IMG/VR virus record: IMGVR_UViG_3300027977_000027
Location: 1 to 64,000 of that record
DNA from: a virus
Length of the DNA stretch: 64,000 nucleotides
Strand: one strand, 5' to 3'
Under the pieces are notes generated by a model. It made no database searches. It had not been told where the DNA came from and saw only the letters and a program-made list of their open reading frames with translations. Below, piece by piece: positions 16,421 to 45,923 of the stretch (within the stretch, counting starts at the first letter, position 1; every line of letters starts with the position of its first letter). Made by a program: the position numbers and the translations under genes.

Positions 16421-16533
16421 TTTCTAAACGTACTTGCATTTTTAAAAATGATTTAGTACCTTTGCAATAGAGATAGAGATATGTGGTCTTTTTTAATAGG
16501 CCACATATTTATATCATACGTTCTTTAACTTAT

Positions 16534-16890
16534 GGGGATATAAAGGTATTGACTGAATATAGTCGTAATTGGTAAGCATGTAGTGCTAGATGGAAGCACT
16601 TTAATCTCGCTATTAACACTTTTAGATGGCAACGATTTTGTTGTATCCGAAAATTTCCTTACCGAAGCTGCTTGCAGTTTCGCTGGAGAGCTTGCTGTAG
16701 CCTAATATAGCTGATAGTGATAATTCACTTCATCGTGGTATGTTCCACGGCATGATGGTAGACCATTAGGGTCTCTTGATTTCCTTCACAAATAATCAAG
16801 ATATTTTGTTTCGTTAGAAAATGAGACTAAACATGTAGAAAGTCTTTCAAGAGTATTCAACACATGGGTTCGATTCCCATTATCTCCACC
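16534..16890 (+). ncRNA. ssrA: tmRNA
   Basis: GGGGATA 5' end pairs with TATCTCC-ACC with G3:U; T arm atgggTTCGATTcccat; tag frame 16628-16705 GNDFVVSENFLTEAACSFAGELAVA*. Confidence 0.9.
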
Positions 16891-16937
16891 GTTGACTTTT
16901 TTGTACCTTGCCGTATATTTATAATAAAAATAGATAT

Positions 16938-18285: not shown

Positions 18286-18377
18286 AATTTTTTTTTGATT
18301 TTACTTGACAACTGATGATTTTTTTCGTACCTTTGCATATATATTACTAAAGCGTTCATTAACATAAATTATCCAAA

Positions 18378-18613
18378 AAGATGGGTTCTGCAAACGAACT
18401 TAAAACTACAAATTGAGCACAAAAAGTATGTAGGTCTTTTTAAAGTTCAGCTACTACAATAGGCTTGGCAACAGGACTAGTTTGTAGGAGTAACTTTAAG
18501 CTAAAACTACCATGGCGTAAGTCCATGTAAAAAAATACTTCATGACGGAGGTCATGTCAAAAAACTGCCAGGTAAACGGGAGTCCTGTAAAATAAATACG
18601 AACAGCCATCTTG
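18378..18613 (+). ncRNA. Putative structured RNA, helix-RUUCWGCAA family copy B (~236 nt)
   Basis: aagatgg-g-ttctgcaa (18378-93) closes with ccatctt-g (18606-13); internal hairpins; own TAnnTTTG promoter at ~18328. Confidence 0.55.
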
Positions 18614-18621
18614 GGATAAAT

Positions 18622-18691
18622 AGAGGAATCGTCTAAGGAAAGACACCACCCGAATGGGGTGTTGATATGAGTGCAAGGCTCATTTCCCCTA
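18622..18691 (+). tRNA. tRNA-like element with non-canonical anticodon and T loops
   Basis: agaggaa/ttcccct acceptor, gtc/gac D stem, cacc/ggtg stem, atgag-tgcaagg-ctcat T arm. Confidence 0.4.
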
Positions 18692-18750
18692 CTAAAAAGA
18701 ATCGAAACGTAATCCTTGAAACACAAGTTGTTTCTTTTCTTAACTTATAT

Positions 18751-18825
18751 TGCGGGGTAGAGCAGTGGTAGCTCGCTAGGCTCATAACCTAGAGGTAGGT
18801 GGTTCGATTCCATCCCCCGCTACCA
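18751..18825 (+). tRNA. tRNA-Met(CAT), initiator type
   Basis: Cloverleaf, loop ctCATaa, unpaired 1:72, encoded ACCA. Confidence 0.9.
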
Positions 18826-20350: not shown

Positions 20351-21220
20351 ATGCAAAAACTATGGAAAAAAGAAGAAATTGATTTATTGGTAAGATTATA
20401 TGAAATTGATGGTTTATCTGTTACTGAATTATTTCCACTTTTCAACGAAAAATATAATAGGCCAATTATTGGTTTACAAGTTAAAATTGGTAGACTCAAA
20501 CTAAGACATAGTAAAGAACAAATTAAAGCTATAAAGTCAAGATTAAATAGTGGTGAATTAAATGGTATGTTTGGTAAGAAATCACCTATGAAAGGGTTAA
20601 CTTCAGAAACATCGGAAATAGTTAGAATTAAATCAGATAAAACATCTAAAACCAGAAAAGAAATGTTTAAAAATGGTGAGCTACAACCATTAACTGGTTC
20701 AACAAACCCTATGTATGGTTCTATATCTTGGAACAATGGTTTAAATAAATACATGGATAAACGTATATTTAATTATGGTGAAAAGATATCTAAAATTAAA
20801 AAAAAAGAGTGGGAAAATAAAACTGAGAATGAAAAAAGGGAAACAATACTTAGGTTAAATAACGCTATGATTCAAACAAAAAAACCGACTAAAATTGAAG
20901 ATAAAATAGAAAACTTTTTAAAAGAAAATGAGGTAAAATATATTAAGAATAAACGTTACGATTTATTTATATTTGATTTCTACTTATTAGAATTTAATTT
21001 TGTGATTGAATGTGATGGTGATTATTGGCACGCAAACCCTTTATTTTATAATGGTAAAAAATTAACTGATGCACAAATAAAAAATATAGAAAGAGATAAA
21101 AGAAAAAATTTGTTATTAGAATCAAACTTAATTGATTTTGTTAGGTTTTGGGAGTTTGATATTAAAAATAATTTTGAAATAATAAAAAAAACAATATGGG
21201 AGAAATTACAAAAGAAATAG
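20351..21220 (+). CDS. Vsr/DUF559-type homing endonuclease inserted in the CCA gene
   Basis: NUMOD3-like NGMFGK/NPMYG, FDFY...IECDGDYWH...D..K...RFWE. Confidence 0.85.
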   Translation: MQKLWKKEEIDLLVRLYEIDGLSVTELFPLFNEKYNRPIIGLQVKIGRLKLRHSKEQIKAIKSRLNSGELNGMFGKKSPMKGLTSETSEIVRIKSDKTSKTRKEMFKNGELQPLTGSTNPMYGSISWNNGLNKYMDKRIFNYGEKISKIKKKEWENKTENEKRETILRLNNAMIQTKKPTKIEDKIENFLKENEVKYIKNKRYDLFIFDFYLLEFNFVIECDGDYWHANPLFYNGKKLTDAQIKNIERDKRKNLLLESNLIDFVRFWEFDIKNNFEIIKKTIWEKLQKK

Positions 21221-21798
21221 ATATTGCTTTGAAAAACACTGTTCATTTATTAAGTGGTATATCTAGTGAACGTATCCGTGATGAATTTATTAAAGGTATT
21301 GTTTCAGCAAAGTCACAAAAAGACTTTTTGGGGATGTTGGATAAGTACAAGTTATTTGATTGGATATTCAAAGGTTTGGATGTGGATATGGGATTTGTTA
21401 ACAGACTTGGTGGTTATAATCATGATGATTATATTGTATTGTTAGCAAGACTTCTTAAGAAAAACAACTTAGATTTATTGAAGAAAAAATTGAATGAATT
21501 AAAATATTCAGTTGAAGAAGTAAAAACCATAACTTTCCTTATTGCTATGTTAAAGCTAGATGTTGATACTGCTGTAACACTTAAAAGAGCTGAAAAAAAT
21601 TCTGGTGTAACTCCAGACCAAATTAGGGATTTTTGTGGTAAGGAAAATGTAAGTAGTCAATTACTAGATGCTTTTGAGGAATTTAGACTAACAGTTAGTG
21701 GTCCAGAAGTTATGGATGACTTGGGGTTAAAACCAGGACCAGAACTTGGAAAAGCAATTCAAAAGATTGAAACGGATAATTTCAAAAAACTTTTATAG
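21196..21798 (+). CDS. CCA-adding enzyme, C-terminal body/tail fragment
   Basis: LSGISSERIRDEFIK and VSGPEVMDDLGLKPGPELGKAI, typical of class II nucleotidyltransferase C-halves. Confidence 0.85.
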   Translation: MGEITKEIDIALKNTVHLLSGISSERIRDEFIKGIVSAKSQKDFLGMLDKYKLFDWIFKGLDVDMGFVNRLGGYNHDDYIVLLARLLKKNNLDLLKKKLNELKYSVEEVKTITFLIAMLKLDVDTAVTLKRAEKNSGVTPDQIRDFCGKENVSSQLLDAFEEFRLTVSGPEVMDDLGLKPGPELGKAIQKIETDNFKKLL

Positions 21799-21846
21799 TG
21801 TTTATTTTTTAATAAACCAAGATATTTATATCTATAAACAAATACT

Positions 21847-22464
21847 ATGAAAAAAAGAGAAATTATAACTGAGACCAAAAGAAAATCTTTATTAGCAGAT
21901 AGAGAAAAAGCCATCGTTGAGTCATTTGCAAAAACTTTTAACAAAATAAAAAGATTGGACGAAGCTTATGGAATGTCCTTTGAGGATGCCAAAGCCGAAG
22001 CAAAAAGAATTTCTGATGAAGAAGGTGGTGTAGCTCAACACGTAAATCAAGTTGGCGAAGATAAATTTATTGTTTCTGATTTTTTTGACGCTGACACAAC
22101 AGTGGCTAGCTTTGGAATTGGAATTGATGAAGCCGAATATTATGACGGTGACGATTATGAACAAGCTTCTAGAAGCATTGAATATGGTATTGACCCATAT
22201 GCTGAAAGACCATCATTGTTTGATGGTGTAGATAGAATATCGGTTGCTAGACCAGAATACAATGGCGCAGTAATGAATAGCATATACGGTATATATATCA
22301 TTTACAAAGATGGTAAACAAGAAAAAATACATTCAGTAGAAGAGTTTAATGATAAATTTGGTACTGATATACCATTAACAAAAGACCCAAGAGAAGTTGT
22401 TTCTTACATTGAAACAAATTACCCAGAAGTTACTGTTTATTTGGATGAATTTGATGTATCATAA
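21847..22464 (+). CDS. Hypothetical late/virion protein
   Basis: ATATTTAT upstream; ITE, IVE, LDE motifs. Confidence 0.65.
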   Translation: MKKREIITETKRKSLLADREKAIVESFAKTFNKIKRLDEAYGMSFEDAKAEAKRISDEEGGVAQHVNQVGEDKFIVSDFFDADTTVASFGIGIDEAEYYDGDDYEQASRSIEYGIDPYAERPSLFDGVDRISVARPEYNGAVMNSIYGIYIIYKDGKQEKIHSVEEFNDKFGTDIPLTKDPREVVSYIETNYPEVTVYLDEFDVS

Positions 22465-22573
22465 TTTTTTTCAAAAAGACTTGCTTTTTTAAAAAAAGTT
22501 TAGTACCTTTGCATAACTTTTATAAACAAAGACATATTTAATAGAAACAGGGGGAACCCAAAAAAGAAAAACA

Positions 22574-22675
22574 ATGAGAAACATTAACATACATATTAAT
22601 TCGATTAGCATGTGGAGACGCAATAGTAATCCACTTGAATCGGCTATGTCTGTAAGTTTCTTTAGTGACTTTTAA
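22574..22675 (+). CDS. Putative attenuator leader peptide of tRNA operon 1
   Basis: MRNINIHINSISMWRRNSNPLESAMSVSFFSDF*, between promoter (22503) and terminator. Confidence 0.75.
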   Translation: MRNINIHINSISMWRRNSNPLESAMSVSFFSDF

Positions 22676-22700
22676 AAATCACAAACAAACAATAAAGAAG

Positions 22701-22743
22701 AACCCGATTCAGAATAAAATCTAAATCGGGTTTTTTGTTTTTT
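22701..22743 (+). terminator. Attenuator terminator upstream of tRNA operon 1
   Basis: aacccgatt ... aatcgggtt + ttttgtttttt; 5' arm ccgattc also complementary to leader gaatcgg (22637-43). Confidence 0.8.
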
Positions 22744-22769
22744 GGTTCATTGACATATTGGTTAAATAC

Positions 22770-22840
22770 ACAGGACACAGGCTTGGTGTCGGTGGGCTCC
22801 CCAAAAGCTTCACGAGTTGCTTCGATTGCAACGTCCTGTG
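22770..22840 (+). tRNA. Atypical tRNA-Trp(CCA)
   Basis: acaggac/gtcctgt-G, gggct-ccCCAaa-agctt, gttgc-TTCGATT-gcaac; weak D arm, C33. Confidence 0.6.
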
Positions 22841-22845
22841 CACAT

Positions 22846-22928
22846 ACACTAGCTCATGGGCGTGACCAACAGACTCCAAATCTGTTCTTAGGATTAAATG
22901 GTTGTAGATTCGACTTCTACCTAGTGTG
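22846..22928 (+). tRNA. tRNA-Trp(CCA) with long variable region
   Basis: acactag/ctagtgt-G, acaga-ctCCAaa-tctgt, gtaga-TTCGACT-tctac. Confidence 0.7.
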
Positions 22929-22933
22929 CATAT

Positions 22934-23020
22934 GGAAGGTGCCTCGCATGGAGCGAAACTAGTCTTGAAAACTAGGGTGGCGGTGATGAGCCGTCAGGGG
23001 GTCGGGTCCTCCACCTTCCT
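22934..23020 (+). tRNA. tRNA-Ser(TGA), 8/4 fold
   Basis: ggaaggtg/caccttcc acceptor, ctagt-ctTGAaa-actag, long variable arm, 4 bp T stem. Confidence 0.8.
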
Positions 23021-23027
23021 CTTACAT

Positions 23028-23100
23028 GGTGTTAGTAGCTCAGAGGCAGAGCGCTGGTTTGTGAAGCCAGAGGTCGGGATTTCGAAATTCCTCTAACACC
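23028..23100 (+). tRNA. tRNA-His(GTG)
   Basis: G-1:C73, ctggt-ttGTGaa-gccag. Confidence 0.9.
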
Positions 23101-23209
23101 CTCTTAAAATTTAACCGTCACCAAACAATGGTTTGGACTCCATGAGTGGGATGCCAGTGAATATGATAATAAACTGGGGCGGTTTAGGGATTGGGAAAAT
23201 TAAAATAAC

Positions 23210-23291
23210 ATTGCGCCATACCGAGCGAACCTGATAAATTCGATATTCGTAGCTGGTGTTGAAAACGTGAGTTCGAGTCTCACCGTGCCTA
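23210..23291 (+). tRNA. Degenerate tRNA-Ile(GAT)-like element
   Basis: cgaac-ctGATaa-attcg, long variable region, gtgag-TTCGAGT-ctcac; 5' acceptor strand and D arm poorly formed. Confidence 0.45.
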
Positions 23292-23299
23292 CTAAACAT

Positions 23300-23381
23300 T
23301 CATAGGTAGCCTAGAGGCCAGGCAGCAGACTGTTAATCTGCGGAAGCAATTCCTACGTGGGTTCGATTCCCACCCTGTGAG
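23300..23381 (+). tRNA. tRNA-Asn(GTT) with long variable arm
   Basis: tcatagg/cctgtga-G, gcaga-ctGTTaa-tctgc, ggaa-gcaa-ttcc arm. Confidence 0.85.
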
Positions 23382-23391
23382 CAAATAATAT

Positions 23392-23478
23392 GGTGTGGTG
23401 GCAGAGAGGTCGATTTCGATAGACTCATATTCTCTTTCCTTACCAAAGGACACACAGATTCGAATCCTGTCCACGTTA
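23392..23478 (+). tRNA. Degenerate CAT-anticodon tRNA (Met or Ile2) with long variable arm
   Basis: ggtgtgg/ccacgtt with three GU pairs, aga-ctCATat-tct, acag-aTTCGAATc-ctgt. Confidence 0.45.
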
Positions 23479-23484
23479 TAACAT

Positions 23485-23557
23485 GGTTCCATAGTGTAAC
23501 GGAAACACACTTCGCTACGAACGAAGAGATTTGGGGGTTCGAATCCCTCTGGAACTA
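23485..23557 (+). tRNA. tRNA-Arg(ACG)
   Basis: cttcg-ctACGaa-cgaag, canonical cloverleaf. Confidence 0.9.
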
Positions 23558-23565
23558 CAAAATAT

Positions 23566-23637
23566 GGTCTCGGAGCATGATGGATATGCGACATCGTTCT
23601 AAGGTGTTCTATGTGGGTTCGACTCCCATCGAGACTA
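23566..23637 (+). tRNA. tRNA-Arg(TCT)
   Basis: ggtctcg/cgagact, acatc-gtTCTaa-ggtgt. Confidence 0.8.
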
Positions 23638-23641
23638 CAAT

Positions 23642-23730
23642 GGAGAATTAACTGGGCAGGGTCCCAGACTTATTTGCTAAATAATGTGTGCGTTTAAAAA
23701 ACGCATGGTTTTCAATTAACCAGTTCTCCG
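23642..23730 (+). tRNA. tRNA-Ser(GCT), 8/4 fold
   Basis: ggagaatt/agttctcc-G, ttat-ttGCTaa-ataa, long variable arm, ggtt-ttcaatt-aacc. Confidence 0.8.
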
Positions 23731-23778
23731 CTTTAAATAACCAATATGTTTTAATTTTTTATAAACATCTTTATATTT

Positions 23779-24186
23779 ATGTATAAAAAGATAAAAGAAA
23801 TGTTTATACCAAACCACCTACATTTGATAGTTAAGGGTAACTTTAAAAACCCACCAACAGAAGTTGATGTTTTAAATAAATGGTTTATCAATTTAGTTGA
23901 AAAAGTTAGAATGGTTGTAGTAGCTGGACCTACTTCAGTTTATGTACATGAAGAAGGCAATGAAGGCTTAACAGGAACCGTAACATTAGCAACTTCTCAT
24001 GGAAGTTTTCATTGTTGGGACAATACAAATCCACCAATGTTTCAATTTGATTTATATTCATGTTCTTGTTTTACTGCTGAAGAGGTTTTAGCGCACTTGG
24101 ATGAATTTGGTTTAATCAAATACGAATATATTTTAATAGATAGAAACGGAGACAAAATGGTTATCATTGAAGATGGCTCAAAATGA
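23779..24186 (+). CDS. speD: S-adenosylmethionine decarboxylase proenzyme
   Basis: GLTGTVTLATSHGSFHCW...FDLYSC. Confidence 0.8.
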   Translation: MYKKIKEMFIPNHLHLIVKGNFKNPPTEVDVLNKWFINLVEKVRMVVVAGPTSVYVHEEGNEGLTGTVTLATSHGSFHCWDNTNPPMFQFDLYSCSCFTAEEVLAHLDEFGLIKYEYILIDRNGDKMVIIEDGSK

Positions 24187-24496
24187 CGACAAAGTAGATT
24201 TTTTCCAATTTAGTTTTTGGCTTTTAAAAGATGTTTTTTGGCTTTTAAAATGGAAAATATTAGCCATGTCGATGGCTATTCCAACAGTAATCTTAACAAT
24301 CTATTTGTTGGTTAAAACAAAAAGATTAATATCTACAAATACCATATTTTCATCATGGGTAATGACAAATGTTTTTTGGATGTTACATGAATTATATGGT
24401 ACACCATTAGGCTTAGCCAAGATATTTATAGTAACAGGAATAACAACACTGGTTTTATATGTAATCAAAAACTATAAAACCCTATTAAAAAAATAG
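24167..24496 (+). CDS. Membrane protein (possible holin)
   Basis: Three to four hydrophobic helices immediately before an endolysin. Confidence 0.55.
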   Translation: MKMAQNDDKVDFFQFSFWLLKDVFWLLKWKILAMSMAIPTVILTIYLLVKTKRLISTNTIFSSWVMTNVFWMLHELYGTPLGLAKIFIVTGITTLVLYVIKNYKTLLKK

Positions 24497-24498
24497 TT

Positions 24499-25014
24499 AT
24501 GGATAACATTACGCTTCAAAGGATTCAGGTTTTACACCCTAAAGTTAGAACTGAAGTTGAAAACATTTACAAAAATCAAATAGTACCAGCTTTAACTGGA
24601 AGAGCAATATGCAGATTTGCATACACTCTTAGAACATTTGCTGAACAAGATGCTTTATATGCTCAAGGCAGAACAAGATTATTTGATGCCAATGGAAATA
24701 GATTAGGTGTGGTTACAAAAGCCAAAGGTGGTCAGTCTATTCATAATTTCGGTTTGGCTTTGGATATCGTTTTAATTAAAGATAATAAAACCGCTAGTTG
24801 GGAAGACAATGTTGATTTTGATAAAGATGGAAAAGCCGACTGGATGGAAGTGGTTGATATATTGAAAGCCAATGGTTGGTCATGGGGTGGTGATTGGAAA
24901 TCATTTAAAGATAAACCACATTTTGAAAAAACATTTGGTTATACTTGGCAACAATTATTGGCAAAACACAACGCTCGTGATTTCATTGCTGGCACCAACT
25001 ATGTGAATATTTGA
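24499..25014 (+). CDS. M15 family L-Ala-D-Glu peptidase endolysin
   Basis: RTFAEQDALYAQGRT, SIHNFGLALD, WGGDW...DKPHFE. Confidence 0.9.
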   Translation: MDNITLQRIQVLHPKVRTEVENIYKNQIVPALTGRAICRFAYTLRTFAEQDALYAQGRTRLFDANGNRLGVVTKAKGGQSIHNFGLALDIVLIKDNKTASWEDNVDFDKDGKADWMEVVDILKANGWSWGGDWKSFKDKPHFEKTFGYTWQQLLAKHNARDFIAGTNYVNI

Positions 25015-25015
25015 T

Positions 25016-25591
25016 ATGAAACAGTTAATTAAAAAATTATTAAGAGAATCTTTAAATGAAATTGTTTCTGGTGGAGAATACATTGTGTACCATGGAACAA
25101 ATTCTGACATCCAAAAATTCTCTGATGAGTTTGTTGGTAAAGAAGAAGCCACAGACCAAGAGGGACCAGGAATATATTTTACCACTTTAAAAGAAGAATC
25201 TGAAATGTATGGTAAAAATCTTTATAGTGTTAAACTAACACCAAGAAAATTAATGGATATGACACCCATTAATAAAAATAAATGGCGTTCTTTTACAACA
25301 AAAATGTTACAGTCTGCACCAGATTGGGAAGATACAGCGCAAAATTTTAATCAGAATCCTAGAAAAGGTCTTATTTTAGCTGTTGAAAGTATGATGGATT
25401 ACAACGACACAGAAAAAGACCTTGCACAACAAATTTGGTATGACTTTTATCGCTATACACCAGTCGATTTTGTTAGAAACATGGTAGATATGGGTATTGA
25501 TGGAATAATAGTGCCTAGAGAAAAGAGTAACCATATAATTGTGTACAACCCAAACATTATAGATGTTTTAGAGGTGGAAAACAAAGATTAA
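25016..25591 (+). CDS. ADP-ribosyltransferase-fold protein (ART-PolyVal-like)
   Basis: VYHGT...F...GPGIYFT...YG...GIDGII...IVYNPNII; MKQLIKKLLRESLNE leader. Confidence 0.6.
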   Translation: MKQLIKKLLRESLNEIVSGGEYIVYHGTNSDIQKFSDEFVGKEEATDQEGPGIYFTTLKEESEMYGKNLYSVKLTPRKLMDMTPINKNKWRSFTTKMLQSAPDWEDTAQNFNQNPRKGLILAVESMMDYNDTEKDLAQQIWYDFYRYTPVDFVRNMVDMGIDGIIVPREKSNHIIVYNPNIIDVLEVENKD

Positions 25592-25645
25592 AAAAATTCA
25601 GTTATTTATTTGGAAAGATAAAATATTTTTTGTACCTTTGCACTT

Positions 25646-26575
25646 ATGAAAGAAAGAATTAAAGAAATATTGCGTGAAAGTGTTGATAAAAACATACTTG
25701 GTGTTACGATTACAAGACCTAACCAAGAATTAATTGTGATGAGGGGCGTATCTGGTGCTGGAAAGAGTACCAAAGCTAAATCTTTGGTTGGTCAAGGTAA
25801 AATCCATTCAACTGATGACGTTATTGAAGCTGGCGGTGATTACCGTGAATTTTTTGCTAAGATGATTGCGTCTGGAGATTTTAGCCCACTCAGCAAGGTA
25901 CATTCTCAAAACTTAAAAGACGCTATTGAGTCAATGAAAGCTGGTATCACACCAGTTATTATTGATAACACCAATATAAAACAAAATGAGCCAAAAGCTT
26001 ATGTTAAAGCCGCTTTGGAATTAGGGTTTGCTGACAATAATATAAAATTCGTAGATGTTGGTACTGCTGGTATTGAAGCTGCACAATTAGCCGCAAGAAA
26101 CACACATGGTGTACCATTGGAGAAGATTGAGGCTATGATAGCAAGTCATACAGCGCAGGGCCCATTAACATTAAAAAGTGTGTTAGATTCAAAAGATATG
26201 TACAAATCATCAAACGTTTTATACTCGGCTGTTGTTTTAGACAAAGCTTCACATAATAAATTGCTTGACAAATTTGCATTAGAAATGCCAGAAGGTTGGA
26301 AAACGTATGCCCATCATATGACAATAACCATGGGTGAATTGAAGGATAAAACTGACATTGGTAAAGAAGTTATCCTTAAAGTAACAAAGGTTGGATTGTC
26401 TGATATGGCTATGGCTGTTCAAGTTGAAGGTTATCAGTCAAAAAATGCTATTCCTCACGTTACTTTAGCGGTAAACCCAGATGGTGGTAAGCCAGTTATG
26501 TCCAATGATATTACTACTTGGCAAGATATCAAACCATTTTTTATCACAGGGTTTGTAACAGAAGTTAAAAAATAG
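25646..26575 (+). CDS. Polynucleotide kinase + 2H cyclic phosphodiesterase (RNA end healing)
   Basis: MRGVSGAGKST, IIDNTN, RNTHGVP; HHMTI and PHVTL 2H motifs. Confidence 0.85.
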   Translation: MKERIKEILRESVDKNILGVTITRPNQELIVMRGVSGAGKSTKAKSLVGQGKIHSTDDVIEAGGDYREFFAKMIASGDFSPLSKVHSQNLKDAIESMKAGITPVIIDNTNIKQNEPKAYVKAALELGFADNNIKFVDVGTAGIEAAQLAARNTHGVPLEKIEAMIASHTAQGPLTLKSVLDSKDMYKSSNVLYSAVVLDKASHNKLLDKFALEMPEGWKTYAHHMTITMGELKDKTDIGKEVILKVTKVGLSDMAMAVQVEGYQSKNAIPHVTLAVNPDGGKPVMSNDITTWQDIKPFFITGFVTEVKK

Positions 26576-26946: not shown

Positions 26947-27020
26947 GGTCCCGTAGCTTAGTTGGATAGAGCAACAGATTTCTAATCTGTGGGTCAGGGG
27001 CCCGAATCCCTTCAGGTTAC
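26947..27020 (+). pseudogene. tRNA-Arg(TCT) with decayed T loop and 3' acceptor strand
   Basis: Intact 5' half and acaga-ttTCTaa-tctgt; T loop cccgaat; 3' caggtta does not pair well with ggtcccg. Confidence 0.65.
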
Positions 27021-27088
27021 AATTTTTTTTATAAAGTATTTGGAATTGTCAAAAATTTTTTATACCTTTGCGTACTAAATAAAAGGTT

Positions 27089-28213
27089 ATGTTAGCAATA
27101 CAAAAATTTATTATTGAAAATGGTTTAGCAAAAGCCATAACTGAGTTCAACCTTAAATCTAGGGTTTATGAACATAAGATTCTTTTAAAATACGACCAAT
27201 TATCAGCGCCATCATTGATGGCATTACCAGAGGTTCAAGAATGTCGTGGTCTTATCTTAGAAAGAAACTCTTGGAAAGTTATGTCGTTAGCATTTACCAA
27301 GTTCTTCAATTCCGAAGAAGGCAACGCACATAAAGTTGATTGGAACACTGCACATGTCTTAGAAAAACTTGATGGTACATGTATTCAAGTCTATTATGAC
27401 TGGAACAACATGACTTGGTATGCTGGAACAACAGGAACTGCCGATGGTGAAGGTGAGGTTAACAATAAAACTGGCACAACGTTTAACCAATTATTTTGGA
27501 AAACTATTAAAGAAAAATATAATTTAGAAGCGTCAAAATTTAACGCTGGTTACACTTATGTATTTGAATTAACAACACCTTATAATATCGTGGTTAAACC
27601 TCATGGTGAATCATCAGCCACATTATTGACTGTTAGGAATCTAGAAACTTTGGAAGAAGTTTCATTTGAAGAACTAACAACAATAGCTGAAGAATTGGGA
27701 GTACCACGTGTTAAATCTTACGATTTAAACGCTAAGAATGTTGGTGCTTTGATAAAAACGTTCGTTGGTATGGTATGGCATGACGAAGGTTATGTTGTGG
27801 TTGATGCTAACCATAACCGAGTAAAGATAAAGAACCCAGCTTATGTACATGCACATCACCTTAAAGGTAAGATGGGTAACCATCATATAATGGGGATAAT
27901 CAAGACCAACGAAATTGAAGAATTTGCTTCTACATTCCCAGAAAGAAAGAATGAATTGTATAAGTTAAAAACAAACTATGATGCGTTAATCACAAAGCTA
28001 AACTTTGTTTGGGATGAACTTAAAACTTTGCGCCCAAAGAATATAACACCAGAAGAAAAGAAAAAATATGCGCAAGCAGTATTTGAAGTTTGTGATAAAA
28101 GAGAAGTTAAAAACTTCACTGGTTTGTTTTTTGGGTTAAACGATGGAAAAGTATCTTCTGTTGAAGACTTCATGTTAAAATATGATGATAAAGCCTTGTA
28201 CAAAATCCTCTAA
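27089..28213 (+). CDS. RNA ligase, T4 Rnl1-like
   Basis: ECRGLIL, FTKFFN, EKLDGT, FEL, EGYVV, RVKIK. Confidence 0.9.
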   Translation: MLAIQKFIIENGLAKAITEFNLKSRVYEHKILLKYDQLSAPSLMALPEVQECRGLILERNSWKVMSLAFTKFFNSEEGNAHKVDWNTAHVLEKLDGTCIQVYYDWNNMTWYAGTTGTADGEGEVNNKTGTTFNQLFWKTIKEKYNLEASKFNAGYTYVFELTTPYNIVVKPHGESSATLLTVRNLETLEEVSFEELTTIAEELGVPRVKSYDLNAKNVGALIKTFVGMVWHDEGYVVVDANHNRVKIKNPAYVHAHHLKGKMGNHHIMGIIKTNEIEEFASTFPERKNELYKLKTNYDALITKLNFVWDELKTLRPKNITPEEKKKYAQAVFEVCDKREVKNFTGLFFGLNDGKVSSVEDFMLKYDDKALYKIL

Positions 28214-42121: not shown

Positions 42122-42238
42122 TTAAAAAAAAAGTTTGAAAAAAACTTGACAATATCAAAAAAAGTTTGTACCTTTGCATAACTTTTAAAAACAAAGACAT
42201 ATTTAATTAAAACGGGGAAACCCAAAAACAAAAAAAAA

Positions 42239-42331
42239 ATGAGAACTTTTGCTAACATATTCGATTTTGCGTTTGAATTCGCAGCCGAGGCCGATAAAAG
42301 CCTAGGGGTCAAGTATATTGTCAAAAGTTAA
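42239..42331 (+). CDS. Putative attenuator leader peptide of tRNA operon 2
   Basis: MRTFANIFDFAFEFAAEADKSLGVKYIVKS*, between promoter (42168) and terminator. Confidence 0.75.
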   Translation: MRTFANIFDFAFEFAAEADKSLGVKYIVKS

Positions 42332-42355
42332 CATAAAAGTTAAGTGTGTGATAAG

Positions 42356-42390
42356 AAGCCTGACCATAAAAAGTCAGGCTTTTTTGTTTT
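42356..42390 (+). terminator. Attenuator terminator upstream of tRNA operon 2
   Basis: aagcctgac-cataaaaa-gtcaggctt + ttttgtttt. Confidence 0.85.
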
Positions 42391-42399
42391 AAAACATAT

Positions 42400-42472
42400 G
42401 GGACGGTAGCTCAGTTGGTAGAGCAGTGGCCTGAAGAGCCACGTGTCGCTGGTTCGATTCCAGCCCGTCCCA
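42400..42472 (+). tRNA. tRNA-Phe(GAA)
   Basis: gtggc-ctGAAga-gccac, canonical. Confidence 0.92.
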
Positions 42473-42477
42473 CGCAT

Positions 42478-42549
42478 GGCACCATCGAATAGTGGTTAGT
42501 TCGTCTGGTTTTCAACCAGAAAACAGGGGTTCAATTCCCCTTGGTGCTA
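42478..42549 (+). tRNA. tRNA-Glu(TTC)
   Basis: tctgg-ttTTCaa-ccaga. Confidence 0.9.
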
Positions 42550-42597
42550 CAAAATGTTACGGTAGACTAGCCTCTAGTCAACGTTGGGTCCTTATAT

Positions 42598-42674
42598 GGA
42601 ATATTAGTAGAGTTGGTTACAATATCGCACTGTCACTGCGAAGGTCACGGGTTCGAATCCCGTATATTCCGCCA
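42598..42674 (+). tRNA. tRNA-Asp(GTC)
   Basis: tcgca-ctGTCac-tgcga, encoded GCCA. Confidence 0.92.
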
Positions 42675-42766
42675 AAAATGGTAATCGTTATTTTTGTGGT
42701 GGCCACCACGAATAATGAAAATCCATACTAAGTAACGAATGATGGCCATCAATAGTTATTTAGTTA

Positions 42767-42837
42767 GAGGATGTAGTTTAATTGGTAAAACTCTGGCGTG
42801 GAGCCAGAAGTTGTGGGTTCGAACCCCATCATCTTCC
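42767..42837 (+). tRNA. tRNA-like gene with abnormal anticodon loop (Pro TGG or His-like)
   Basis: gaggatg/catcttc, good D and T arms, tctggc-gtgga-gccaga. Confidence 0.55.
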
Positions 42838-42843
42838 AAATAT

Positions 42844-42916
42844 GGGGTGCCATGTACCAAGGCTGGCGAGAGACCTTTGCAAGGTTTCTGGTAGGATTCG
42901 ATTTCCTAGCGCTCCA
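42844..42916 (+). tRNA. tRNA-Ala(TGC)
   Basis: G3:U70, A73, agacc-ttTGCaa-ggttt; atypical D arm. Confidence 0.8.
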
Positions 42917-42976
42917 CAAAGCTCCGAAAGGGGCTTTTTTTATTTGTTTGGATATTTATGAAAAAGCAACTTTAAG

Positions 42977-45610: not shown

Positions 45611-45734
45611 TGGGAGGTGGCCAAATTGGTAAAGGCAGCGGTAATGCAAAAAGTTTAATCTGTATAAGATTAAGTTCAGCAAAAAAAAAGCTAATGGAAA
45701 CCGCCATTTGTAGGTTCGAGTCCTACTCTCCCAA
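45611..45734 (+). ncRNA. tRNA-scaffold RNA whose anticodon loop is a 57 nt insert carrying the helix-RUUCWGCAA motif (copy D)
   Basis: tgggagg/tctccca, gcc/ggc D arm, gcggt/accgc stem, gtagg-TTCGAGT-cctac; insert holds ttaatct-g-tata-agattaa-g-ttcagcaa. Confidence 0.7.
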
Positions 45735-45923
45735 CAAAAAAGGACATACTTGTGTAACACTAGGTTGGCTCCCTTTCCCACATTTGGGATATAACCAAAA
45801 AGAGCTATGGCTGACCATGGGCAACCGATGAATTTAAAATGATTCATATACAGGGGGTGAGATAGTGTGAACGATTTCTAGGGTCTAGGTAAAATCCCCA
45901 CAAGTCCCTGTTCTTATTAAAAT

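Follow-up and report, generated by a model that had tools for sequence, protein, structure and literature searches.

A putative leader-peptide attenuator with codons matched to the phage tRNA array that it precedes

What decides whether a phage transcribes the tRNA genes it carries? The question is raised by a stretch of viral DNA of 64,000 nucleotides (IMG/VR record IMGVR_UViG_3300027977_000027, positions 1 to 64,000; hereafter the window), in which a promoter, a short open reading frame (ORF) and a terminator stand at the head of the first tRNA array. The first-pass annotation, made from the letters of the window, had proposed an attenuator of the geometry known from the trp and his operons, with sensing codons that are those read by the tRNAs encoded downstream. 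That proposal is supported in silico by conservation, by covariation of the antiterminator, by the behaviour of variant codons, by the lack of a promoter motif in the array and by the existence of paralogous families. We therefore favour, with a probability of roughly 0.78 as judged from sequence, a ribosome-mediated leader-peptide attenuator that would couple transcription of the array to decoding speed.

Leader anatomy and codon match

The source record, from a freshwater phage, is a single contig of 73,020 bp with 31% G+C, and lake and freshwater metagenomes are the DNA sources in which the stretch occurs. Its genes lie almost all on the + strand behind a TTG-N(17-23)-TAnnTTTG motif, which we take to be the Bacteroidota promoter consensus and which occurs in the genome at 46 sites on the + strand and nine on the - strand. 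One of these + strand sites is the promoter of the leader, predicted at the outset to lie near 22503 and found there (Table 1). The ORF, which starts 63 nt 3' of the -7 element of this promoter, has the 33 codons originally described, and its codons 2-19, here called the roster, are exactly those first listed. The strong terminator said to follow the ORF is likewise present as a 13-pair hairpin succeeded by TTTTGTTTTTT; in one terminator listing this hairpin appeared under the - strand only. Folding of the 191-nt leader stretch gave a z score of -5.06, none of 200 shuffled sequences being equally stable. No Rfam family was found for the leader, the best matches, PyrG_leader (24 bits, E 1.8), the trpB motif (19.3) and Thr_leader (18.2), all being far under the cut-off.

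The codons readable by array 1 were defined from the anticodons GTG, CCA, TGA, GAT, CAT, GTT, ACG, TCT and GCT with ordinary wobble, CAT being taken to read ATG or ATA. The resulting set has 18 codons, which account for 27.7% of those used by 78 long ORFs, and every one of the 18 roster codons belongs to it. In a six-frame scan of the 54,319 stop-free 18-codon segments of the 73-kb genome, scores of at least 15 were reached only where a segment overlapped the leader ORF, with a maximum of 14 elsewhere. Lys, Leu, Glu, Asp, Phe and Tyr, common in the proteins of this genome, are absent from codons 2-19. The correspondence between leader codons and downstream anticodons, claimed from the start to extend to isoacceptors, is thus the genome-wide maximum.

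It might be argued that such a match reflects composition bias, the ORF being an independent small gene or small RNA with a plain terminator and the array being expressed through leaky read-through or an unrecognised promoter. AT-rich ORFs are naturally rich in Asn, Ile and Ser, and a TAtaTTTA near-motif is present after array 1. Composition, however, yields no more than 14 of 18 elsewhere in the genome, and six amino acids common in its proteins are missing from the roster. Moreover, the first tRNA-like gene begins just 25 nt after the T tract, and a motif scan of the window revealed no promoter motif between 22511 and the next + strand motif at 25610. We regard this explanation as very unlikely, and further evidence on it is given below.

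Conservation in relatives and the alternative folds

No close annotated phage relative was found by blastn or tblastn. A blastn search of 50,697 phage records with positions 21800-24500 produced matches in 29 of them, all no larger than a tRNA and none with 80% coverage, and tblastn with the upstream 205-aa protein gave zero matches in phage records; a tRNA-Arg is the sole sequence that the region of Cellulophaga phage phi38:1 has in common with that of the window. Relatives were gathered in IMG/VR through searches with flanking proteins and then with the leader as a DNA pattern. The joint leader pattern returned 42 contigs and a half-pattern 13 further genuine ones, three spurious matches from the latter search (L092, L094 and L099) having been removed. 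In all, more than 50 IMG/VR contigs, from 5.8 to 369 kb, carry the leader unit, and two half-patterns, each leaving the opposite half free, yielded 30 distinct rosters. The search of bacterial genomes with the leader pattern found two short contigs of metagenome-assembled genomes (L077 and L078), which are taken as phage fragments within bins, and no host copy.

Promoter, ORF and terminator are all present in the relatives. None of the 33 distinct homologous leaders lacks the ORF: it is open in 33/33, with ATG and stop kept and indels in multiples of three, and the terminator is present in the same 33. The 5' half of the ORF retains 83-88% nucleotide identity even where the neighbouring protein is only 29-77% identical, while the 3' halves represent several unrelated sequence types. 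Among the 32 loci with at least 2 kb of downstream sequence, 20 have at least seven of the nine core anticodons, seven have 5-6, two have 1-4 and three have none. The core array that follows the leader, His/Trp/Ser/Ile/CAT/Asn/Arg/Arg/Ser, is accordingly seen with at least five of its nine anticodons at 27 of these loci. Within 6 kb of the leaders, 287 tRNAs were called, and 267 of them are specific for Arg, Ser, Asn, Ile, His, Trp or Met.

The rosters of this leader family (family 1) are not uniform. Across the 30 distinct rosters, 29 variant codons were counted at positions 4-18, with L039 excluded because of its 3-nt deletion; 24 of them fall within the set (47% expected, p = 8e-5), and codons 2-3 are loosely kept. 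Seventeen of the 24 alter the amino acid, among Ile, Asn, Met, Ser, Arg and His, and at codon 12 Ser is retained across a switch between the AGC and TCG codon families. Variants of this kind, which keep to the set despite the change of amino acid, are what would be expected if selection acted on the choice of tRNAs called for and not on the peptide or on the bare RNA.

The same changes bear on a different account of a switchable terminator, according to which a small molecule or general translation stress would cause the conserved nascent peptide (…NIH..SI..WRRNS) to arrest the translating ribosome, the codon match being secondary. The TnaC, Erm and MsrD leaders provide precedents for arrest peptides. 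W-R-R-N-S at codons 14-18 is invariant in 42/42 contigs retrieved by a pattern that did not fix those codons, and both the retention of the leader at three loci without an array and the inexactness of the match (a Thr codon at position 3 and a missing His codon in L106, discussed below) would sit well with such a mechanism. However, the 17 amino-acid changes just mentioned are non-conservative, a match of 18/18 is the genome-wide extreme, and leaders 2 and 3, introduced below, have unrelated peptides within the same architecture, each matching its own array. Control by an arrest peptide consequently appears improbable to us.

The antiterminator that had been pointed out, GAATCGG at 22637-22643 complementary to CCGATTC at 22704-22710, is present at those positions and covaries in the relatives. 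By eye, the segment at codons 21-24 is complementary to the terminator 5' arm of its own locus in at least nine sequence versions, namely GAATCGG/CCGATTC, GAGTCGG/CCGACTC, GTCGGG/CCCGAC, GAGACG/CGTCTC, GGTCAAGG/CCTTGACC, GAATTCGG/CCGAATTC, GGTTCGGGT/GCTCGAATC, GCTA-CGGGT/ACCCGATAGC and TAG-CAGGT/ACCTGACTA. A plain terminator has no need of such covariation between an ORF segment and its 5' arm. This was assessed quantitatively with RNAduplex, which gave a mean of -13.5 kcal/mol for region 2 with its own terminator arm and -6.8 +/- 2.4 kcal/mol for 421 pairings with dissimilar arms; in 25 of 33 leaders the own arm was unequalled by any foreign one, the remaining eight having 1-4 equally good foreign arms. 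On the alignment, five of the nine antiterminator pairs show changes on both sides, and the covariation score is 0.251, as compared with 0.162 +/- 0.014 for shuffles (0/500 reaching the observed value) and no more than 0.186 for slid versions. The pair counts come from an unrefined MAFFT alignment of 32 rows in which L032-type leaders are two columns out of register, so that they understate the antiterminator. In the same rows double changes are seen at 9 of 12 pairs of the terminator hairpin and at one pair of the small hairpin between regions 1 and 2, for which 68.8% of cells are paired. A further helix, TTCTTTA with TAAAGAA, had been proposed as nested within the antiterminator: the complementarity is real (22658-22664 with 22693-22699), but the minimum-energy fold does not contain it as a nested helix, and L049 has lost it.

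Folding with and without the roster masked, a check suggested along with the original proposal, gave the two expected structures. The full transcript forms the 1:2 (anti-antiterminator) helix together with the terminator, and the nascent RNA with its roster masked forms the 2:3 helix, both in leader 1 and in the paralogous leader 2. In the folds of leader 1 the antiterminator is extended, 22635-22643 pairing with 22704-22712.

These folds, and the conservation of the frame, are relevant to the idea that the codon list is an RNA-only sensor, a multi-specifier counterpart of the T-box that would pair directly with mature tRNAs at their anticodons and need no translation. Roster triplets are complementary to the downstream anticodons by construction, and in T-boxes a leader RNA does sense tRNA via codon-anticodon pairing. 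Like the phage element, the T-box is a leader RNA in which terminator and antiterminator are alternatives, and it reports on the state of one particular tRNA. It does so without translation, by direct binding of uncharged tRNA to a single specifier codon and to the T-box sequence. The phage element, in contrast, bears every sign of a translated ORF: an ATG, a stop and a frame kept open, with indels in multiples of three, are found in 33/33 versions despite unrelated 3' halves, the context before the ATG is A-rich, and Ser is kept through the AGC/TCG switch. In addition, the triplets are buried in the 1:2 helix in the terminated fold, and Rfam gave no match to the T-box at the gathering threshold in the window, nor to the T-box or another known family at E <= 10 in 22450-23800. 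An RNA-only sensor is therefore, in our judgement, extremely unlikely.

For a leader-peptide attenuator, our preferred reading, the anatomy predicts a course of events that takes in ORF translation and ribosome stalling as well as the sense of the control and its trigger in the cell. Polymerase would start at the promoter and transcribe the 33-codon ORF, the sensed codons being Arg AGA and CGC, Asn AAY, Ile AUU and AUA, His CAU, Ser UCG and AGY, Met AUG and Trp UGG. Were all of these decoded fast, the ribosome would advance over region 2, or the 1:2 helix would re-pair, and the hairpin at 22701-22732 would form and stop transcription before the array. Were any roster codon slow, the ribosome would stay on region 1, leaving the extended antiterminator to form and allowing read-through into the tRNAs. 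The roster ends at codon 18-19, some 10 nt before region 2, and on geometric grounds a ribosome stalled at about this point would start to occlude that region. Such a device would exert negative feedback, the array being on if its tRNAs or their charging were limiting and off if they were plentiful, and would act as an OR gate over about nine isoacceptor classes.

Paralogous leaders and points of conflict

A paralogous cassette is present elsewhere in the window, with promoter and 5' untranslated region (UTR) near-identical to those of cassette 1. The 5'-UTR hairpin of leader 1 is also found in it, and is absent from L005-type relatives. Leader 2 is rich in Phe, Ala, Asp and Glu codons and stands directly before a Phe/Glu/Asp/Pro/Ala array; once its codons 1-20 are masked, GGUCA at 42307-42311 pairs with the terminator 5' arm. 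Little of the correspondence is left when each leader is scored against the codon set of the other array, leader 1 having 0/18 codons in set 2 and leader 2 having 3/18 in set 1 (Fisher test for leaders 1 and 2 against sets 1 and 2, p = 2.8e-6), and this use of a complementary codon set is a further argument against a small gene with a plain terminator. Homologs of leader 2 in L073, L080/81, L088 and L091 precede Phe/Glu/Asp/Ala arrays. Nine of the 13 matches to the leader-2 pattern were spurious, lying within GC-rich protein genes, and were removed.

A generic scan of all fetched loci for a promoter, a short ORF and a terminator uncovered a third leader family (MKNLSLQIVLVLCLLV…, MKTLSLQLVLVLCLLLV…), rich in Leu, Val and Cys, which is positioned before Cys/Val/Leu arrays in related contigs and is matched to them down to TTA, TTG, CTA and GTC. 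A fourth, weaker family emerged from the same scan. In a matrix of leaders by arrays, the arrays of a leader's own family typically account for 9-17 of 17 codons (6-10 in family 3 and 4-5 in family 4), those of other families for a mean of 2.3.

Several observations weigh against an attenuator. Ten tRNAs were claimed for array 1, of which five pass ARAGORN at default and four pass the Rfam RF00005 cut-off (29 bits); the others comprise three found by relaxed ARAGORN only, one sub-threshold tRNA-Sec match and an Ile(GAT)-like element without a call. With the five firmly called tRNAs alone the match falls to 11/18, although reliance on the four weaker anticodons is not special pleading, because canonical genes for them occur at the same array positions in relatives. 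The match is also imperfect in detail. Codon 3 is Thr ACA in 18 of the 30 distinct rosters, and tRNA-Thr(TGT) is called in one array only (L042); the L106 leader is without a His codon, yet a His-like tRNA is present in its array; and the extra array members Arg-CCT and Ser-GGA have no codon in their leaders. The fine-scale co-variation of leader and array that had been predicted was consequently not seen within family 1. L106 was at one stage a candidate for the loss of a codon together with its tRNA, rejected when relaxed ARAGORN found the His-like tRNA. Leader 2, for its part, scores 11/18 at strict wobble, less than the 13 attained elsewhere in the genome; only with Ala and Pro treated as four-codon boxes does it become the genome maximum, at 14/18.

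Other difficulties are found in the loci and the folds. At 3/32 loci (L051, L059 and L068) the leader is kept with no array within 2.7-4.7 kb; the records of L059, L068 and L038 are fragments, 5-15% complete, with 1-2 tRNA matches. The possibility of a promoter downstream of the terminator, raised in the first-pass annotation, was checked by motif: there is none in the window, as described above, or inside the array in 19/24 related loci, but promoter-like motifs are present inside it in the other 5/24, as would suit an array independent of the leader. The 1:2 helix shows few double changes, its core pairs being invariant (ACATA/TATG in 32 rows) and 62-73% of cells being paired; conserved mainly as invariant bases, it is neither supported nor contradicted by the relatives. 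The comparison of masked and unmasked folds held only in part, in that the minimum-energy fold of the nascent leader 1 is the 2:3 antiterminator already, without a ribosome, so that the basal state would depend on kinetics. Finally, the family-1 loci share one ancestor, and their agreement hence counts as one evolutionary event, not 50.

The array, its neighbours and known control systems

The features of both cassettes and their arrays are collected in Table 1. The initial tRNA list stands for the five genes called by ARAGORN at default, holds at lower thresholds for Trp-CCA, Ser-TGA, Ser-GCT and the second CCA element, and is left without a recognisable gene for Ile(GAT). No Ile(GAT) cloverleaf was found at the place proposed for it, even with relaxed ARAGORN; the element there, possibly a remnant, lies just 3' of a break in homology at 23208/23209. 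The first Trp-CCA-like element has 91% identical copies in L013 and L106, and canonical Trp-CCA genes occur in relatives.

Table 1. Positions of the leader cassettes and array elements in the window, with the basis for each.
Feature	Position	Strand	Basis
Promoter 1: TTG (22481-22483), 20 nt, TAccTTTG (22504-22511)	22481-22511	+	Sequence; kept in relatives
5'-UTR hairpin GGG-GGAA-CCC, then A-rich stretch before ATG	22550-22559	+	Folds
Leader ORF 1, 33 codons, MRNINIHINSISMWRRNSNPLESAMSVSFFSDF	22574-22675	+	ORF list
Roster, codons 2-19: AGA AAC ATT AAC ATA CAT ATT AAT TCG ATT AGC ATG TGG AGA CGC AAT AGT AAT	22577-22630	+	
Region 1, 5' strand of 1:2 (anti-antiterminator) helix, within roster codons	22576-22610	+	Minimum-energy fold, full transcript
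Small hairpin GTGGA...TCCAC between regions 1 and 2	22612-22634	+	Folds
Region 2, partner of region 1; first 9 nt (22635-22643, TTGAATCGG) alternatively pair with terminator 5' arm	22635-22662	+	Constrained folds
Intrinsic terminator (regions 3 and 4): 13-pair hairpin 22701-22732 and T tract	22701-22745	+	
tRNA-like, anticodon CCA (Trp), C at position 33	22770-22841	+	ARAGORN, relaxed threshold only
Second tRNA-like element, CUCCAAA loop (CCA)	22845-22928	+	Rfam tRNA-Sec model 30.8 bits (cut-off 47); no ARAGORN call
tRNA-Ser(TGA), T arm non-canonical	22934-23021	+	ARAGORN relaxed; Rfam tRNA-Sec 32.9 bits, under cut-off
tRNA-His(GTG)	23029-23101	+	ARAGORN default; Rfam 55.1 bits
Ile(GAT)-like, possible remnant: CUGAUAA-loop hairpin, T arm, 3' acceptor strand	23210-23299	+	Sequence; partial Rfam match 23248-23294
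tRNA-Asn(GTT), 83 nt, long variable region	23300-23382	+	ARAGORN default; Rfam 54.5 bits
CAT-anticodon tRNA, 89 nt (Met, or Ile if lysidine-modified)	23391-23479	+	ARAGORN default; Rfam 26.1 bits (cut-off 29)
tRNA-Arg(ACG)	23485-23558	+	ARAGORN default; Rfam 61.4 bits
tRNA-Arg(TCT)	23566-23638	+	ARAGORN default; Rfam 41.6 bits
tRNA-Ser(GCT)	23642-23731	+	ARAGORN relaxed only; default-called at same array position in relatives
Paralogous cassette: promoter 42146-42176, leader ORF 42239-42331 (MRTFANIFDFAFEFAAEADKSLGVKYIVKS), terminator about 42355-42392	42146-42392	+	
Array 2: Phe-GAA, Glu-TTC, Asp-GTC, Pro-TGG, Ala-TGC (42400-42917); terminator 42920-42942	42400-42942	+	ARAGORN, Rfam

Long variable regions are a feature of several tRNAs normally of class I: besides the Asn and CAT genes of the window, a His gene of L106 (relaxed call) has 90 nt and an Ile gene of L002 has 85 nt. 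Strain contigs diverge directly after the terminator (22741-22763) and again at 23208/23209, indicating strain mosaicism; the contigs compared came from two DNA runs and from two runs labelled RNA-Seq that contain a small share of the stretch and are probably DNA. Arrays of relatives are mosaic as well, with two tandem family-1 leaders along one array in L034 and endonuclease-like ORFs scattered among array tRNAs. Between terminator and tRNAs, many relatives have a conserved ORF of about 65 aa (M.EELVR.LG.VK…GYNGDLRFKKE) which has no Pfam match, lies about 155-370 nt after the leader ATG (L005, L006, L008, L009, L012 and others) and is absent from the window; in some a homing-endonuclease-like ORF is found in this position.

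Array 1 is followed at 23779-25014 by genes for an AdoMet_dc-like protein, for a membrane-like product of 109 aa and for an M15 peptidase that is probably an endolysin. A strict promoter motif is not seen until 25610, and these genes may be co-transcribed with array 1 by read-through. There follow an ART-PolyVal family ADP-ribosyltransferase (25016-25591), a fusion of a kinase with tRNA_lig_CPD (25646-26575) and an Rnl1-family ligase, RNA_lig_T4_1 (27089-28213); the kinase fusion and the ligase each have a separate promoter motif. A second tRNA-Arg(TCT) at 26953-27021 (Rfam 41.4 bits, ARAGORN relaxed only) stands alone between a 102-aa ORF and the Rnl1 promoter, and one is found at the same place in L011. 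Upstream of the leader, the ORF at 21196-21798 contains only C-terminal domains of a CCA-adding enzyme (PolyA_pol_RNAbd, tRNA_NucTran2_2) and overlaps the end of a 289-aa ORF with weak, endonuclease-like DUF559/DUF6831 matches (the two spanning 20351-21798); the CCA-enzyme gene may have been split by a mobile endonuclease. A promoter at 16434 serves a phage gene for transfer-messenger RNA (tmRNA) at 16534-16891, which scores 76.5 bits in Rfam and for which ARAGORN gives the tag peptide GNDFVVSENFLTEAACSFAGELAVA. Directly 5' of a tRNA-Met (18751-18825), the interval 18305-18750 contains a promoter, an ORF of 11 codons (MGSANELKTTN) and some 340 nt that are richer in G+C and match nothing in Rfam; this is possibly another structured RNA or a different kind of leader. 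Elsewhere, at 45611-45735, is a 124-nt tRNA-like gene (Rfam tRNA 43.6 bits) called by ARAGORN as a Ser(GGA) gene whose anticodon loop is enlarged by an insert of 52 nt.

Phage tRNA sets and repair of the T4 type (Pnkp and Rnl1) answer host tRNA depletion and anticodon nucleases. This genome is similar in having a kinase-CPD healing enzyme, an Rnl1-family ligase, a CCA-enzyme fragment and tmRNA near its arrays, which fits a concern with tRNA damage. More tentatively, then, the codon-matched attenuators might be the sensing arm of an inducible counter-defence against anticodon nucleases or other tRNA-depleting immunity, a possibility that we rate as appreciable though less likely than not to be true. 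Loss of any listed host tRNA would stall the leader ribosome and switch on the phage replacements, whose unusual bodies, with long variable arms and odd anticodon loops, may escape the nuclease. In some relatives the leader would directly switch on heal-and-seal enzymes: in L059 and L068 it lies directly 5' of kinase-CPD and Rnl1 genes. Each array would then be a separately triggered module of replacement on demand, and the set of leaders a record of the host tRNAs under attack.

Leader-peptide attenuators of amino-acid biosynthetic operons include trpL, hisL, pheL, leuL and the multivalent thrL and ilvL. The phage element shares with them a promoter-proximal short ORF, putative sensing codons in region 1, predicted, mutually exclusive 1:2, 2:3 and 3:4 helices and a terminator before the genes, and it resembles the thrL and ilvL leaders in combining several amino acids. 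It differs in that the genes it would govern are for tRNAs and not enzymes, and in that its product would act back directly on the quantity sensed. It also differs in its roster, which spans seven amino acids and about nine isoacceptor classes, each present 1-4 times, where biosynthetic leaders have a run of one or two, and in belonging to a phage-borne family of re-programmed cassettes, one per array. The pheST operon of E. coli, encoding phenylalanyl-tRNA synthetase and attenuated by the pheM leader peptide, is similar in that its leader peptide adjusts expression of part of the translation machinery to the amount of charged cognate tRNA available. That system is bacterial, however, and is concerned with one amino acid and a synthetase protein gene, with no tRNA genes under its control. 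Among the biosynthetic examples, the pheL leader attenuator is treated in one published account (PMC3082878).

A different comparison is offered by the trn operon of Anabaena PCC 7120, a supernumerary tRNA array that is induced under translational stress via the repressor TrcR, according to the two reports concerned (PMC8421152, PMC10272220). It too is an extra tRNA array, silent by default and on when translation is impaired, but its control operates through a ribbon-helix-helix repressor and a global stress response on a bacterial megaplasmid, unlike the cis-acting, codon-matched leader of the phage.

The first-pass annotation knew of no description of attenuator-controlled phage tRNA arrays, and a full-text search of one literature library found no published account of leader-peptide attenuation of tRNA genes. 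To our knowledge, phage tRNA genes are treated in print as constitutively or temporally expressed, with no sensor described before them, and we know of no tRNA genes in general that are under leader-peptide attenuation. The class of mechanism is known, while the tRNA-gene target, the multi-tRNA roster and the re-programming for each array are new.

Phage tRNA genes are common, and the timing and mode of their expression are largely unknown, a gap on which the leader would bear. If the attenuator reading is true, the translational supply of individual tRNAs would be linked to their own transcription, in a manner multiplexed over about nine isoacceptors and re-programmed from array to array. It would follow as a rule for annotation that a short ORF and terminator upstream of an array predict the content of that array, and the leaders would represent a natural, compact and programmable sensor of tRNA availability for synthetic biology. 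For the phages themselves, the leaders would name the tRNAs that are monitored, thereby making testable whether tRNA carriage serves codon-usage demand, compensation for host tRNA decay or defence against anticodon nucleases.

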